Of a stretch of DNA of 38,548 nt, positions 28,929 to 37,422 are shown in pieces (the stretch's first letter is position 1; the number at the start of each line of letters is the position of its first letter). The translations under genes and the position numbers were made by a program. Under the pieces are notes generated by a model. That model ran no database searches, was not told the DNA's origin, and was given only the letters and a program-made list of their open reading frames with translations. The stretch comes from a virus (lineage: Duplodnaviria > Heunggongvirae > Uroviricota > Caudoviricetes). The DNA lies in IMG/VR virus record IMGVR_UViG_2718217885_000011; one strand, given 5' to 3'.

Positions 28929-29162
28929 TTAATGCAGCCAGCTGTCGTCCTCCCACACCTTCTGCATAATTTTCATCACTTGTTTTCTTTCTTCATCCAG
29001 TTGCAGTCCGGTTAGTTCCACACCGTTAGAGCTACCTTTGCGAATGCGAATTACCGTTTTGGGATACAGGGGGCGCAGATTGCGGTAAAGCTCGGATTCA
29101 AGGGCGTCCAGGGTAGACTGGCTAATCTTCTGCTCTTTATCGATCATTATTTCAATGCGCAT
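28929..29162 (-). CDS. DinI-family protein
   Basis: MRIEIMIDKEQ...VWEDDSW resembles E. coli DinI (MRIEVTIAK...TWESADDW); GAGGTGA SD before the internal ATG; ORF track extends to 29234. Confidence 0.75.
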   Translation of the reverse strand: MRIEIMIDKEQKISQSTLDALESELYRNLRPLYPKTVIRIRKGSSNGVELTGLQLDEERKQVMKIMQKVWEDDSWLH

Positions 29163-29172
29163 AAAAGTCACC

Positions 29173-29361
29173 TCAGCTGATGACATCCATTGAGCGGTTG
29201 TATTCGTGGCTTCTGATTTTTGCCATGAGTTCATCAGTCAATTCAGAAACCCACTGCAGAGCCAGCCCCTTCTCTTCATCACTACACTCACTAGCCGCTA
29301 CAAGCTTAAGAAAAAAATCAATGCGCTGGAGCTTCAAAGACTCCAAAAAATAGTCCTGCAT
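29173..29361 (-). CDS. small hypothetical protein (62 aa), first gene of SOS-box operon
   Basis: ATG with AGGAGG SD; LexA box about 45 bp upstream. Confidence 0.55.
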   Translation of the reverse strand: MQDYFLESLKLQRIDFFLKLVAASECSDEEKGLALQWVSELTDELMAKIRSHEYNRSMDVIS

Positions 29362-29403
29362 CTTTCCTCCTATGACACCAAAACAATACTGTATAAATAA
29401 CCA

Positions 29404-29419
29404 CTGTTTATATTTACAG
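29404..29419. promoter_or_regulatory. LexA (SOS) box CTGT-N8-ACAG
   Basis: aCTGTttatatttACAGta matches the consensus taCTGTatatatataCAGta at all conserved positions. Confidence 0.6.
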
Positions 29420-33648: not shown

Positions 33649-33812
33649 TGGTTCCCCCGTTTTTTCGTTGATAGTTCTGCCAGCAATTCATCTTGTGAAC
33701 GGCACGGATGCCAGCGTTTACCATCCTCACCCATGATCCAGCCGTGACCGTAGTGCATTGCCGGGCTTTGTTTTACCAGCAGCGATGCAAATGATGGTTC
33801 TTTCGTCAGCAT
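33612..33812 (-). CDS. hypothetical early protein downstream of cII (position of 186 fil)
   Basis: ORF 33612..33842 in track; internal Met preferred to avoid overlap with cII; assignment by position only. Confidence 0.4.
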   Translation of the reverse strand: MLTKEPSFASLLVKQSPAMHYGHGWIMGEDGKRWHPCRSQDELLAELSTKKRGNQWLLKALRRLFH

Positions 33813-33819
33813 AAGCACC

Positions 33820-34329
33820 TCACAGCAAACCAAATGAAGCACCGAGGCCAGTCACGGTATCAACTGCACTCGCCATCGCAGGGTTAGCCTGTAAACGGGC
33901 CTGCAATGAAACAGCAGCCAACGCCATCAGTCGTGTTACAGAGTTAATGCTGCTGATAGCATCACGACGGCCTGCACTGGTTTTTACATCGCCAGACACC
34001 GCGCCTGCAGCTACACGCCCGATCTCTGCTGTTGCACTCATGACGTAATGCGGCAGTTTCTCTTTTGCCACCTCATTAATCGGAACACATGGCAGGCAGT
34101 GAATCTGTGCCAGAAAACCATCTACCAGTGTTGAGTCTTCTGTCAGATCAGTAAGCAACCAAATTTCTGGTGCGGTTAATAAATGAGGTTGAGCTGGATT
34201 CAGCTTGTTCCGCAGAATCTGCACATTCATACCTGCACGTTCTGCCAGTTGCACCAAGTTGTGGCGCAATGCAAATGCACGACAGGCTTCATCAAAATGT
34301 GGATGTTTGGAAACTTGGTAATCAAACAT
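33820..34329 (-). CDS. CII-like transcriptional activator (phage 186 CII family)
   Basis: [20 protein letters not shown]...[25 protein letters not shown] closely resembles 186 CII as recalled; start at internal Met, ORF track extends to 34383. Confidence 0.85.
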
Positions 34330-34361
34330 AGTCGACACTCCTGATGCATCCCAAAATGGAA

Positions 34362-34583
34362 CTAGTTGAATACAACATTGCAATCAGCAAGTGCATCAAC
34401 GGTAAGAGCAGCAAGGTTGATCATTACCTTTTCTCTTTTCTTGTCTTTCCGAAGGCGATGGCGAGGGATACGACCATCAGCCAGCATATCGTTGATGGTG
34501 TCGATAGAAAGACCAGTAAGTTCGCTATAACGCTCAATTGTGACGTGTGGCGTATTCAGAGTTATTGAAATGTTAGGGGTCAT
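34362..34583 (-). CDS. Apl/Cox-like excisionase and repressor of lysogenic promoter
   Basis: 73-aa HTH protein, first gene of the operon divergent/convergent with cI. Confidence 0.7.
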
Positions 34584-34670
34584 GATGCAACATCTCCTAT
34601 TGGCTTGTGGTGAGCCGGTATTAATCGTGACAAAACATCACAAAACGGAGAATAGGTTCACATAAAGAAT
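34584..34670. promoter_or_regulatory. immunity switch region (lytic and lysogenic promoters, operators)
   Basis: 87-bp AT-rich interval between apl and cI starts; repeated acaaaac and cctatt/aatagg inverted elements. Confidence 0.45.
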
Positions 34671-35609
34671 ATGTCAACTCAAAAAATCACATTTCGCCAT
34701 ATTGAAGATAGTCTGAAAGCTATGGTCATGCAGAATCGTGGAGGGCAAAAAGTCATTGAGAGGATACTCAAGGCCTATGGTTTCAAATCACGCCAAGCCT
34801 TCTGTAAGCATCTTGGTATTTCACAAAGCACAATGGCTAATAGATATGCACGCGATACCTTCCCTGCTGATTGGGTTGTTATATGTTCAATGGAAACTGG
34901 CGCATCCCTAGAATGGCTGGCCTTTGGTTCTAACAATGCAGAAGAAAGTTTCCCCCCTTATGTGGAACAACATGATGAAACAGTCCCACATGAGGGGTTT
35001 AACAGCAACGCTCATCAATCATCCTTTAAGCGCCGCATTGAGAATCACATTGAGCTTACTAACGGAGGAAAAGCCGCGATAGAGAGGATTGTTAATGCTT
35101 ACGGGTTTAAAACCCGCCAAGCCTTAGCCGACCACCTTGGTATTTCAAAAAGCACATTAGCCACACGATACATGCGAGATTCTTTCCCTGCGGATTGGGT
35201 GATTAAATGCGCATTAGAAACCAAAGCGGATCTCGCCTGGCTAGTTACAGGAATCGAAACACCAAATAGTTCACAAGAAGAAAACACTGTAATTTTAAAT
35301 AAGTTCAATTTGGTCAATGGCGTGCTTGTCGAGTCAGGTTTTTTATCCATGGATCGGTGTCTACTTCCGAAGCAAGAAACTAGCAGCTTGATGTTTGTAA
35401 GCAATGGAGAAAAACATGTCATATGTGATAAAGAATTTCACCTAATTAGAGATGGAAAATGGTTAGTAGGAATTGACAATGAGTTATCTTTAAAAGAGTT
35501 AACTCGTTTACCTAAGAACAAAATTCTTGTTTCTGGTGGGAGTAAGGATTTTGAGTGTTCCATTGAGGATATTCAAATTATAGCCAGCATTATCTTAACA
35601 ATACAATAA
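34671..35609 (+). CDS. CI-type immunity repressor (186 CI family) with tandem duplicated N-terminal HTH domain
   Basis: two ~65-aa repeats (IERILKAYGFKSRQAFCKHLGISQSTMANRYARDTFPADW... / IERIVNAYGFKTRQALADHLGISKSTLATRYMRDSFPADW...) plus a C-terminal domain resembling 186 CI. Confidence 0.8.
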   Translation: MSTQKITFRHIEDSLKAMVMQNRGGQKVIERILKAYGFKSRQAFCKHLGISQSTMANRYARDTFPADWVVICSMETGASLEWLAFGSNNAEESFPPYVEQHDETVPHEGFNSNAHQSSFKRRIENHIELTNGGKAAIERIVNAYGFKTRQALADHLGISKSTLATRYMRDSFPADWVIKCALETKADLAWLVTGIETPNSSQEENTVILNKFNLVNGVLVESGFLSMDRCLLPKQETSSLMFVSNGEKHVICDKEFHLIRDGKWLVGIDNELSLKELTRLPKNKILVSGGSKDFECSIEDIQIIASIILTIQ

Positions 35610-35652: not shown

Positions 35653-37422
35653 ATGAATCATCATCTTTCAAAGATTTCTATAAAAAACTTTAGATCTTGC
35701 AAAGATATTGATATCAATTTTTCTTCATTCACGCCTTTAATCGGTTACAACAATGCTGGTAAGTCAACGATTTTAAATGCTATTGAATGGCTTTTTAAGA
35801 AAAAACTTTTGTCCTCTGATGATTATACTAATCCAGATAACCCTATAGAAGTTATAGGTACAGTTAAGGGTATTACTGAAGATATTTTGTCAGCTTTAAC
35901 AGAAGAAAACAGAACTAGAATTTCACCCTACATTATTGATGGGGTATTGATATTTAAGCGTCAACAGACTGTTGGTGCTCAAAGTGCAAAAGACGTCAGA
36001 TTATTAATTAAAAACCCAGAAAATAACGAATTCAGGACATCACCAACGGGTATTGAGAATGCGATAAAAGCTTTATTTCCAGACCCAATACGTATAGGTG
36101 CAATGGAAAATGCAGCGGATGATTCTTCAAAATCAAAAACAGGAACTACAATAGGTAAGTTGCTGGCAGAATTGAGTTGCAAAATAGAAGAGAAGCACAC
36201 TCAAAGGATACTAAGCCATTTAAATGCCGTTAATAGAAGAATGACTGCAACCGGTAATAAACGAATATCGGACCTCAATGATATTGATGATTCAATAAGT
36301 AGTAAACTTGCTGATTTCTTCCTTGGGATAAGTTTAAAACTACACTTCGAACTCCCTGACTTCAAGGATATATTTAAATCTGGGACTGTAAAAGTATATG
36401 AAGATTCATTTCCCGGCATTGCTCGTGACTGTTCTTCTTATGGTCATGGCACACAGCGTTCGATTCAGATGTCTCTAATAAGACATTTAGCTGATATAAC
36501 CAACGGTGATGATATTAAAACAACTACTCTACTGTTAATAGATGAACCTGAGTTATATCTTCACCCATTTGCTATCGAACAAATTAGAGAATCTCTAAAA
36601 ACACTATCTCATCATGGATATCAAATAATTTTCTCTACCCATTCATCTCAAATGATTACCTCTGACTTAGCAAAAGACACTGTGTTAATCAGAAAAAACA
36701 GTCAGCGTGGCACTCATTGCAGATTAACATTAAAAGAAGCAGTCAATAAAGTAATCGAACAACGACCAGCACAAGCAACCCATTTATTTTCATTAACACA
36801 GTCTTCAAAAGTTTTGTTTGCTAACAATGTAATACTAACAGAAGGTAAAACAGAGACTACTCTGCTCCCATTTATTTTTAACAAAGTTAAAAATAAAACA
36901 TTAGGTCAGATGCAAATAGCACTAATTGAAACAGGGTCCGTTGAAAGTATATCTAAAACGATGCAAATTCTAAATTCAATGGATATACCTACAAAAGCAA
37001 TTGTTGATTTAGATTTTGCGTTCCGCGGTGCAATAAGGAACAACTTCTTAGAACATAATGACGAGGATATTTTACGACTAAAAGAAATCTTGAGAAGTAT
37101 GCATGCTAATGGAGAATGCACTCTCGATGGATCCGGTTTGCCTACAAAGGGTAGTAACACTACCGCAGCTGAAGCATTTGCTATTATGTCTCAAAAGCCC
37201 GGCGCCAGAGAATTTTTGTCATCATTAGCCGCAAAACTGAGAAATGCAAATATTTGGATTTGGCTAAATGGTTCGATAGAAAACCATTTGGGTCTTACAG
37301 AAAAAAATGAATCAGTATGGGCTGATTTCAAAACAAAAGCAGATACACAACCTCTTTCAGATATCTGTGCAGATTTCGAAAGTATTGAGGCTTTAGTCGA
37401 CTGGATTACCCCTGACGTATGA
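35653..37422 (+). CDS. OLD-family ATP-dependent endonuclease (ABC-type ATPase + TOPRIM), P2 Old-like class 1
   Basis: Walker A GYNNAGKST, Walker B LLLIDEPELYLHP, FSTHS, then TOPRIM-like VILTEGKTE and VDLDF; 589 aa (P2 Old ~586 aa); strong GGAGG SD. Confidence 0.85.
   Translation: MNHHLSKISIKNFRSCKDIDINFSSFTPLIGYNNAGKSTILNAIEWLFKKKLLSSDDYTNPDNPIEVIGTVKGITEDILSALTEENRTRISPYIIDGVLIFKRQQTVGAQSAKDVRLLIKNPENNEFRTSPTGIENAIKALFPDPIRIGAMENAADDSSKSKTGTTIGKLLAELSCKIEEKHTQRILSHLNAVNRRMTATGNKRISDLNDIDDSISSKLADFFLGISLKLHFELPDFKDIFKSGTVKVYEDSFPGIARDCSSYGHGTQRSIQMSLIRHLADITNGDDIKTTTLLLIDEPELYLHPFAIEQIRESLKTLSHHGYQIIFSTHSSQMITSDLAKDTVLIRKNSQRGTHCRLTLKEAVNKVIEQRPAQATHLFSLTQSSKVLFANNVILTEGKTETTLLPFIFNKVKNKTLGQMQIALIETGSVESISKTMQILNSMDIPTKAIVDLDFAFRGAIRNNFLEHNDEDILRLKEILRSMHANGECTLDGSGLPTKGSNTTAAEAFAIMSQKPGAREFLSSLAAKLRNANIWIWLNGSIENHLGLTEKNESVWADFKTKADTQPLSDICADFESIEALVDWITPDV

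Follow-up and report, generated by a model that had tools for sequence, protein, structure and literature searches.

How does an immunity repressor use a second DNA-binding head? Canonical 186-type CI repressors carry one helix-turn-helix (HTH) domain per chain of about 185–210 amino acids (aa), whereas the cI gene of one tailed-phage record in IMG/VR encodes a chain of 312 aa with two. The record is IMGVR_UViG_2718217885_000011 (Caudoviricetes), and its full 38,548 nucleotides are called the window here. By all sequence and context criteria, save the defining one-head architecture, the protein belongs to the 186-type CI family. We consider it probable that the two-headed cI is the working immunity repressor of a P2/186-like Escherichia coli prophage, in which the first head (N1) reads the prophage's own operators and the second head (N2) provides a second specificity.

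A single open reading frame (ORF) encodes both heads and one C-terminal domain. It runs from an ATG start through 312 codons to a stop, and both peptide strings quoted in a first-pass annotation of the window are found in its product. That annotation had called residues ~25–85 and ~133–195 paralogous, and BLASTP of the two halves bore this out with a gapless match of residues 24–86 to 132–194 (40 of 63 positions identical, 63%; E = 2e-32). The domain search that it proposed recovered Phage_CI_repr (PF07022) in two stretches (whole-protein E 1.5e-58, best stretch 135–197) and Phage_CI_C (PF16452) once, at 210–308 (E 1.4e-22), while a phmmer scan placed the HTH envelopes at 25–86 and 133–197. 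Residues 136–308 align to residues 10–182 of full-length 186 CI (PDB 2FJR; E 2.2e-28), with N2 lying on the 186 CI N-terminal domain. 186 CI is 192 aa long, close to the ~190 aa that the annotation gave, and the window protein differs from it by an extra leader, HTH and roughly 40-aa tether (residues 1–131). Of the 25 Pfam matches to cI listed at E ≤ 1, none was to Peptidase_S24, and the C-terminal domains of LexA and UmuD showed a distant fold resemblance at 9–17% identity.

Structure prediction resolved the chain into separate modules. An AlphaFold2 model of the monomer, built from 39 doubled sequences, reached a mean predicted local distance difference test score (pLDDT) of 77.7 and a predicted template-modelling score (pTM) of 0.40. 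In the model the leader is a short helix, N1 is a five-helix bundle at 25–85 (pLDDT about 80–88), N2 is a second five-helix bundle at 133–193, and residues 206–311 form a beta-rich domain (pLDDT >90) that Foldseek superimposed on 2FKD with a target-normalised TM score of 0.89 and a root-mean-square deviation (rmsd) of 1.2 Å over 106 columns. Residues 89–126 fall below a pLDDT of 50, and the linker is predicted to be disordered. Because of the low pTM and this disordered segment, no fixed packing of N1 against N2 is predicted. By eye, no suitably spaced ATG, GTG or TTG follows GGAGGA at 35064–35069 that could serve as an internal start for a short product of N2 plus the C-terminal domain.

The architecture is not unusual in databases: it recurs in 45 or more clusters of proteins and in several phage genomes on deposit. 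Searching 5.8 billion proteins, we found two HTH domains in 45 of the best 120 matching clusters, taken at the 90% identity level, and the C-terminal domain as well in 43 of these 45. Summed member counts give about 1,590 sequences, from E. coli, Salmonella, Klebsiella, Citrobacter, Enterobacter, Kosakonia and Edwardsiella, and the doubled clusters are 39–61% identical to the window cI. IMG/VR yielded 34 distinct proteins of the doubled form, along with 21 single-HTH proteins related to N1. A profile search of genome contigs with the doubled-family alignment returned 78 loci, two of them doubled and the rest single-HTH, which served as our panel for operators of N2-type repressors.

Deposited phages have carried this architecture without comment. 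The CI of Klebsiella phage 4LV2017 (ARB15674.1, 313 aa) and those of the ST11-VIM1phi8.4 group, all Peduoviridae, share the two HTH domains and the operator region with the window and differ in the C-terminal domain and the downstream cargo gene, which marks the locus as mosaic. Such proteins are annotated only as 'repressor protein CI'. No published description of a two-HTH 186-type CI was found in the literature searched, and a 2011 survey of regulatory genes in P2-like phages mentions only longer couplers and longer C-terminal domains. The two-HTH sub-family has thus apparently been sequenced already, yet not described. Truncated doubled genes also occur: one contig, otherwise identical to the window over N1, encodes 237 aa (L088, 1501–2214), and two further copies of 227–229 aa (P0041, P0049) have no C-terminal domain. 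Such copies may belong to prophages in decay.

Sequence comparison indicates that cI arose by in-frame, end-to-end fusion of a head of one repressor class to a complete repressor of another, not by local duplication. Clustering the HTH domains separated three groups, which we call Q, K and a small third class. The Q class (recognition helix SQSTMANRYAR) comprises N1 of 36 doubled proteins and the sole head of 11 single-HTH repressors of about 207 aa. The K class (SKSTLA[NT]RY[ML]R) comprises N2 of 44 of the 45 doubled proteins and the sole head of 64 single-HTH repressors; even the lone N2 outlier reads SKSTLANRYLQ. The third class (SSSTLANRYTR) supplies N1 in five doubled proteins. The first-pass annotation had described a tandem duplication of one domain, but the heads belong to two diverged classes, each also found alone in single-HTH repressors. 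N1 and N2 are 58% identical within one protein and 58% identical across different proteins, and this equal likeness gives no sign of recent or repeated duplication.

The two parts of the chain find their counterparts in different single-headed repressors. By BLASTP, residues 1–92 are 79% identical to residues 1–92 of the Q-type repressor P0073 (208 aa, Salmonella prophages), and residues 127–312 are 69% identical to the whole length, residues 1–185, of the K-type repressor P0036 (Citrobacter freundii). The DNA is similarly divided: 34638–34916 matches a Q-type single-HTH locus at 77%, and 35076–37599 matches at 79% a K-type single-HTH locus, that of P0036, which has the same Old nuclease and integrase genes downstream. 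A third stretch, 33800–35179 (cII to about cI codon 170), is 91% identical to phage 4LV2017. Since these stretches match different loci, the window cI is itself a mosaic inside an already doubled lineage. We propose that an N-terminal module of leader and Q-type HTH, taken from one 186-family repressor class, was placed ahead of a complete K-type repressor, and that the join between them would form the disordered tether of about 40 aa.

Three candidate operators crowd the lytic promoter of the switch. The only sigma-70-like match in 34300–34900 (10 of 12 hexamer positions) reads toward cox and cII, and by analogy is inferred to act as the equivalent of 186 pR; its −35 and −10 hexamers are kept in doubled, Q-type and K-type relatives. 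The pattern WTCACAWWW occurs nine times on the two strands of the window, and three of these matches fall within 58 bp at the candidate pR, starting at 34637, 34657 and 34686 (S1, S2 and S3; Table 1). Set out on the pattern of the 186 FL, FR and pB operators, they read TCAC-N5-GGAG, TCAC-N5-GAAT and TCAC-N5-GCCA, each with a conserved left half and a non-palindromic right half. Over 50 distinct operator regions, doubled and Q-type single-HTH phages alike, P0073-bearing phages among them, carry these three sites with orientation unchanged and spacings of 20 and 29–30 bp. The layout was seen in 21 distinct Q-type single regions and in 27 of 29 distinct doubled ones. The first-pass annotation had expected a second head to change operator geometry; instead, sequence type, orientation and spacing all match those of relatives that have the N1-type head alone. 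S1 is kept at its position in 27 of 29 distinct doubled and 16 of 21 Q-type single operator regions. The TCACA core of S2 is kept in 18 of the 21 Q-type single regions against 12 of the 29 doubled ones, counts taken over phylogenetically non-independent regions.

The resemblance to 186 extends to the half-site and stops at the symmetry. The TCAC half-site is that of the annotated 186 FL, FR and pB operators (ATTCAC-N5-GTGAAT), whereas the window pR sites carry TCAC on the same strand with non-palindromic right halves and the 186 sites are inverted repeats. Equivalents of the distal 186 sites FL and FR, which flank at about 300–400 bp, were not found: across the window and 67 distinct related loci, no FL/FR-like site (TCACA...CG) held a consistent position beyond the three pR sites. 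The promoter region of ogr, the late activator, offered loose TCGCA/GAGA resemblances at most. Within the linker-coding DNA, ATTGAGAATCACATTGAG at 35037–35057 (+) sets a TCACA core between two ATTGAG repeats about 360 bp from pR, roughly where 186 has FL; it is not conserved in relatives, the linker being variable. Face to face with pR lies a possible equivalent of pL, proposed by analogy to 186, whose annotated pL lies in the start of apl; the putative window promoter failed the promoter scan. The weak extra site over its start might give autoregulation. Its sequence is also present in phages with other repressors, namely K-type phages with the same cox module, and it may instead be a Cox or pL element.

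A natural operator swap was seen in Escherichia phage vB_EcoM-813R9 (L005, 1800–1920). Its cox and cox-proximal intergenic DNA is 91% identical to the window (34584–34700), its cI is a single K-type gene, and a perfect 16-bp palindrome, GTACCCAATTGGGTAC, together with a related half-palindrome, replaces S1 and S3. The operator cassette was cleanly exchanged between two switch regions that are near-identical in other respects.

Operator type follows the class of N1, not that of N2, and three comparisons between phage groups agree on this point. Q-type single-HTH phages, which lack N2, carry the same operators as doubled phages. Doubled proteins whose N2 helix reads ATRYMRD or ANRYLRD likewise share the same operators. 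Doubled proteins that combine a third-class N1 with an ordinary K-type N2 have CTCACA-N3-TGTGAG palindromes instead, at the spacer and upstream positions. DNA comparison further indicates that the N1 module was inherited together with its operators. Because operator type tracks N1 in this way, an effect of the architecture on immunity specificity, also suggested by the first-pass annotation, is plausible.

N2 keeps the recognition helix of a stand-alone repressor whose target is missing from the window. Its helix-2/3 string, HLGISKSTLATRYMRDSFPA, is identical to that of the stand-alone P0036-group repressors. Phages of that group carry GTTCAC-N5-GTGAC adjoining cI, as in the operator fragment AAGTTCACCTGGAGTGACC of locus L086. 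P0073 and P0036 have one head each, and unlike the P0036-type loci the window lacks the K-type palindromes; indeed, TCAC-N5-GTGA does not occur in it. Allowing up to two mismatches, 186 B-type operators (TTCAC-N5-GTGAA) gave 21 matches in the window against 17.7 expected, none with both cores intact. A-type-like palindromes (ACCCAATTGGGT and TCTCAATTGAGA, up to three mismatches) gave fewer matches in the window than expected by chance.

Two individual candidates could not be assigned as N2 targets. The one nearby A-type-like match, GCTCAATTGTGA at 34532, inside cox, is common to phages with other repressors. Most doubled phages conserve a GTGA 12 bp upstream of S1, but this tetramer, which reads GTGG in one group, occurs as well in K-type single-HTH phages that have this cox module and so cannot be told apart from Cox or pL signals.

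One lineage places a doubled cI directly behind a single-headed one. In five IMG/VR contigs (L119 848–2424, L121, L123, L127 and L129) tandem cI genes share a lysogenic operon. The first encodes a K-type single-HTH repressor of 189 aa and has a GTTCAC-N5-GTGAC operator of its own; the second, a doubled cI of 307 aa, comes 50 bp after it. No Q-type operator was found 5' of the second gene or elsewhere in the roughly 3.3-kb locus of these contigs, which leaves the Q-type head of this lineage without a resident target in the DNA examined. Such an arrangement would be expected if these heads can act against other phages, and it is our main ground for considering an outward-looking role of the spare head, in wider superinfection immunity, more likely than a purely cis role.

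Both heads are under strong purifying selection. Mean pairwise identity across the doubled family is 74% in N1, 78% in N2, 19% in the linker and 35% in the C-terminal domain. Where synonymous sites were unsaturated, the ratio of nonsynonymous to synonymous substitution rates (dN/dS) was 0.01–0.10 in N1, 0.08–0.18 in N2 and 0.2–0.7 in the linker. Linker length is roughly kept despite the variable sequence, the behavior of a length-conserved tether. Over the first 23 codons of cI (34671–34739) dS is 0.17–0.50, compared with 0.30–2.3 in N1 for the same pairs, consistent with a DNA element embedded in the leader, where the −35 box and S3 lie.

These observations suggest how the repressor could work. 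N1 heads on long flexible tethers would bind the three TCACA sites, at +1, in the spacer and upstream, and thereby shut off the lytic promoter. The C-terminal domain would dimerise and, if it resembles 186 CI (2FKD) with its wheel of seven dimers, probably assemble further into a wheel, making repression cooperative. N2 occupies the place of the sole head of a normal 186-type repressor and would bind palindromic K-type operators as a dimer. We assign it a second DNA-binding specificity because it keeps a K-type recognition helix, yet the matching palindromic operator is absent from the prophage. That specificity might be spent on weak contacts within the repressor–DNA complex or on repression of incoming K-type 186-like phages; in the latter case the lysogen would be immune to K-type phages while its own promoter escapes their repressors. 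An extended version of this scheme, in which a K-type phage captured a Q-type operator-plus-head module and gained one-way immunity, is tentative. There the repressor would silence incoming phages of both types, domain addition would be a general route to broader immunity in Peduoviridae, and the tandem doubled cI would be defense cargo; the whole seems to us possible and rather less likely to be right than wrong.

Table 1. Positions of the cI gene, its domains, candidate control elements and related genes in the window.
Feature	Position	Strand	Basis or remarks
cI gene, two-HTH immunity repressor	34671..35609	+	ORF list; Pfam 2x PF07022 + PF16452; PHROG transcriptional repressor; RefSeq name
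N-terminal leader, residues 1–23, specific to Q-type heads	34671..34739	+	Alignment; coding DNA holds lytic-promoter −35 box and operator S3
N1, first HTH, residues 24–87, Q-type, recognition helix SQSTMANRYAR	34740..34931	+	Pfam/phmmer; five predicted helices
Inter-domain linker, residues 88–131	34932..35063	+	Low pLDDT; low family identity
N2, second HTH, residues 132–197, K-type, recognition helix SKSTLATRYMR	35064..35261	+	Pfam; 2FJR alignment; five predicted helices
C-terminal beta-rich domain, residues 206–312, 186 CI oligomerisation-domain fold	35286..35606	+	PF16452; pLDDT; Foldseek
Candidate lytic promoter, pR equivalent	34649..34677	-	−35 TTGACA (34677–34672), 17-nt spacer, −10 TATTCT (34654–34649); reads toward cox, cII
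Candidate operator S1, ATCAC-AAAAC-GGAG	34637..34650	+	Exact WTCACAWWW; just downstream of −10, about +1 of pR
Candidate operator S2, TTCAC-ATAAA-GAAT	34657..34670	+	WTCACAWWW; in −10/−35 spacer of pR
Candidate operator S3, ATCAC-ATTTC-GCCA	34686..34699	+	WTCACAWWW; upstream of −35, inside cI codons 6–10
Putative lysogenic promoter, possible pL equivalent	34565..34593	+	TTGAAA, 17 nt, CAACAT, face to face with pR; read from sequence
Possible weak extra site TCAC-CACAA-GCCA	34601..34613	-	Regex scan; over putative pL start
Cox/Apl-like excisionase-repressor	34362..34583	-	PHROG 575, E 9.4e-32; first lytic-operon gene, transcribed away from cI
CII-like activator	33820..34383	-	PF06892, E 4.4e-42; RefSeq annotation, RefSeq start at 34329
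Likely SOS-controlled induction operon	28929..29419	-	LexA box (29404–29419), 62-aa ORF (29173–29361), DinI-like ORF (28929–29162)

The gene sits where a 186 repressor should. The window, a P2/186-like prophage of E. coli, is integrated between ybjL and rcdA, and its switch has the gene layout annotated for 186 in NC_001317. As in 186, cI faces the cox/apl–cII arm from the cI–int side; three candidate sites overlap the putative lytic promoter. This repressor position upholds the identification as an immunity repressor made in the first-pass annotation. No second cI-like gene lies in the locus. Among 5,426 complete genomes of E. coli, 13 contain the cox–cI–Old segment at 99% DNA identity or more, with the cI ORF uninterrupted and named 'phage repressor protein CI' (WP_042096903.1) in RefSeq.

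Downstream of cI on the same strand lie an Old nuclease gene and then the integrase. The former, at 35653–37422 (+), is a full-length defense nuclease of the P2 Old type, with AAA_15 and OLD-like TOPRIM domains (PADLOC Old, E 5.6e-232). Its place between cI and int makes expression from the lysogenic operon probable. In locus L086 the same gene lies 3' of a single-HTH cI, and the cargo found here in other doubled-cI phages is different. Compared with the closest annotated E. coli record (L003, strain PSS-08-1), the window is 1,438 bp shorter at some point between its tail genes and the DinI-like gene. The two prophages therefore differ by an insertion or deletion, which may be the DUF4062 or hypothetical-gene region of that record. 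Coordinates borrowed from it were re-checked on the window, the left part of the prophage being offset.

Induction probably proceeds through a LexA-controlled antirepressor operon, not through self-cleavage of the repressor. The LexA box, CTGTTTATATTTACAG, is the only exact CTGT-N8-ACAG in the window. It precedes a 62-aa ORF belonging to phrog_698, a family of unknown function, and a DinI-like ORF of 77 aa (PF06183, E 6.6e-23) whose product matches the C-terminal half of 186 Tum at 41% identity. The 186 record describes Tum as inhibiting DNA binding by CI. The 62-aa ORF showed no similarity to 186 Tum, its N-terminal half included. The operon resembles a 186 SOS/Tum operon that has been split, and the 62-aa protein is a candidate antirepressor.

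Could the second head serve another purpose, or none? One possibility is a single-chain pseudo-dimer, in which N1 and N2 of one chain replace the homodimer on one asymmetric operator, TCAC plus a variable right half. The window sites, with GGAG, GAAT or GCCA opposite TCAC, are asymmetric as this requires, and doubled phages have a more degenerate S2 than their single-HTH relatives do. A solved precedent also exists in a monomeric mycobacteriophage repressor that places two DNA-binding domains on an asymmetric site (PMC9283540). Yet relatives with the Q head alone have the same asymmetric sites at the same spacing, so asymmetry does not mark a two-headed chain; the tether of about 40 aa is predicted to be disordered, with no N1–N2 packing predicted; and N2 with the C-terminal domain amounts to a complete homodimer-type repressor. 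We therefore regard the pseudo-dimer as unlikely. Alternatively, N2 may not bind DNA at all and could be a folded spacer, or part of an oligomer scaffold, between N1 and the C-terminal domain. The lack of a cognate K-type operator in the prophage fits this idea, which nonetheless seems improbable: no other part of the protein is as conserved as N2 (78% mean identity; dN/dS about 0.1), N2 shares its recognition helix with stand-alone repressors that must bind DNA, and a mere spacer would be expected to drift as the linker has.

The SOS operon raises a further option, that one head acts as sensor or decoy for an SOS-induced small antirepressor, tuning inducibility or guarding against foreign antirepressors without reading DNA. 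The LexA box ahead of the 62-aa ORF and the Tum-like DinI ORF give this idea its footing. Nothing ties the 62-aa protein to either head, however, the similarity to the N-terminal half of Tum is missing, and the recognition helices of both heads are intact; we give it as little credence as the spacer. The last alternative takes the gene for an artefact of annotation or assembly, or for a pseudogene in decay that two neighboring cI genes gave rise to. Truncated relatives (L088, P0041 and P0049) and the tandem cI genes of one lineage show where such a thing might come from. Against it, the ORF is intact in 13 complete genomes of E. coli and across 45 diverged clusters, both domains are under purifying selection, and the gene is the sole cI of its switch. 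A fusion by sequencing or assembly is ruled out by the 13 intact copies, which also contradict the artefact of two fused ORFs that the first-pass annotation had allowed for, and we put the chance of any such explanation close to nil.

Several points weigh against the two-specificity reading that we prefer. S1–S3 are not clear palindromes: each consists of one TCAC core and a right half that varies. All operator assignments are drawn from position and from conservation, part of the latter being explained by promoter hexamers and coding constraint. The absence of TCAC-N5-GTGA from the window is by itself weak evidence, the chance expectation being below one. N2 contacts could account for the GTGA near S1 and for the degenerate S2 of doubled phages, which would favor a cis role, though both are confounded with cox type. 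N2 conservation could reflect a role other than DNA binding, and the structure was predicted for the monomer only (pTM 0.40).

Known repressors with added or exchanged heads offer partial parallels. In engineered single-chain 434 repressors two HTH domains are covalently joined, and hetero-specific versions read hybrid operators; their short linkers mimic the dimer, whereas the window cI has a long disordered linker and keeps its natural oligomerisation domain. In the lambda–186 hybrid repressor (PDB 7JVT) a 186-type C-terminal domain, which the window domain matches, carries a foreign N-terminal DNA-binding domain, but this was an engineered swap of one head and added no second. The immunity repressor of mycobacteriophage TipsytheTRex is one chain with two DNA-binding domains, an arrangement that its authors propose to aid the evolution of new immune specificities (PMC9283540). 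That protein has an unrelated fold and acts as a monomer with two unlike domains on one asymmetric site. The window cI is unlike it in having two homologous HTH domains tethered to an oligomerising domain.

Two-headed CI proteins bear on the question of how a phage can alter or widen its immunity and still repress its own promoter. The 186 switch is among the best-measured alternatives to the lambda switch, and its logic depends on the number of heads per repressor wheel. A natural repressor with twice as many heads and two specificities is a ready-made experiment in multivalency and cooperativity, and its head, tether and wheel domain are potential parts for synthetic circuits. If the second head does repress other phages, these common prophages of Klebsiella, Salmonella and E. 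coli would confer a cross-immunity masked by the label 'repressor protein CI'. Such hidden cross-immunity, if real, would matter for predicting phage host range and competition among prophages.

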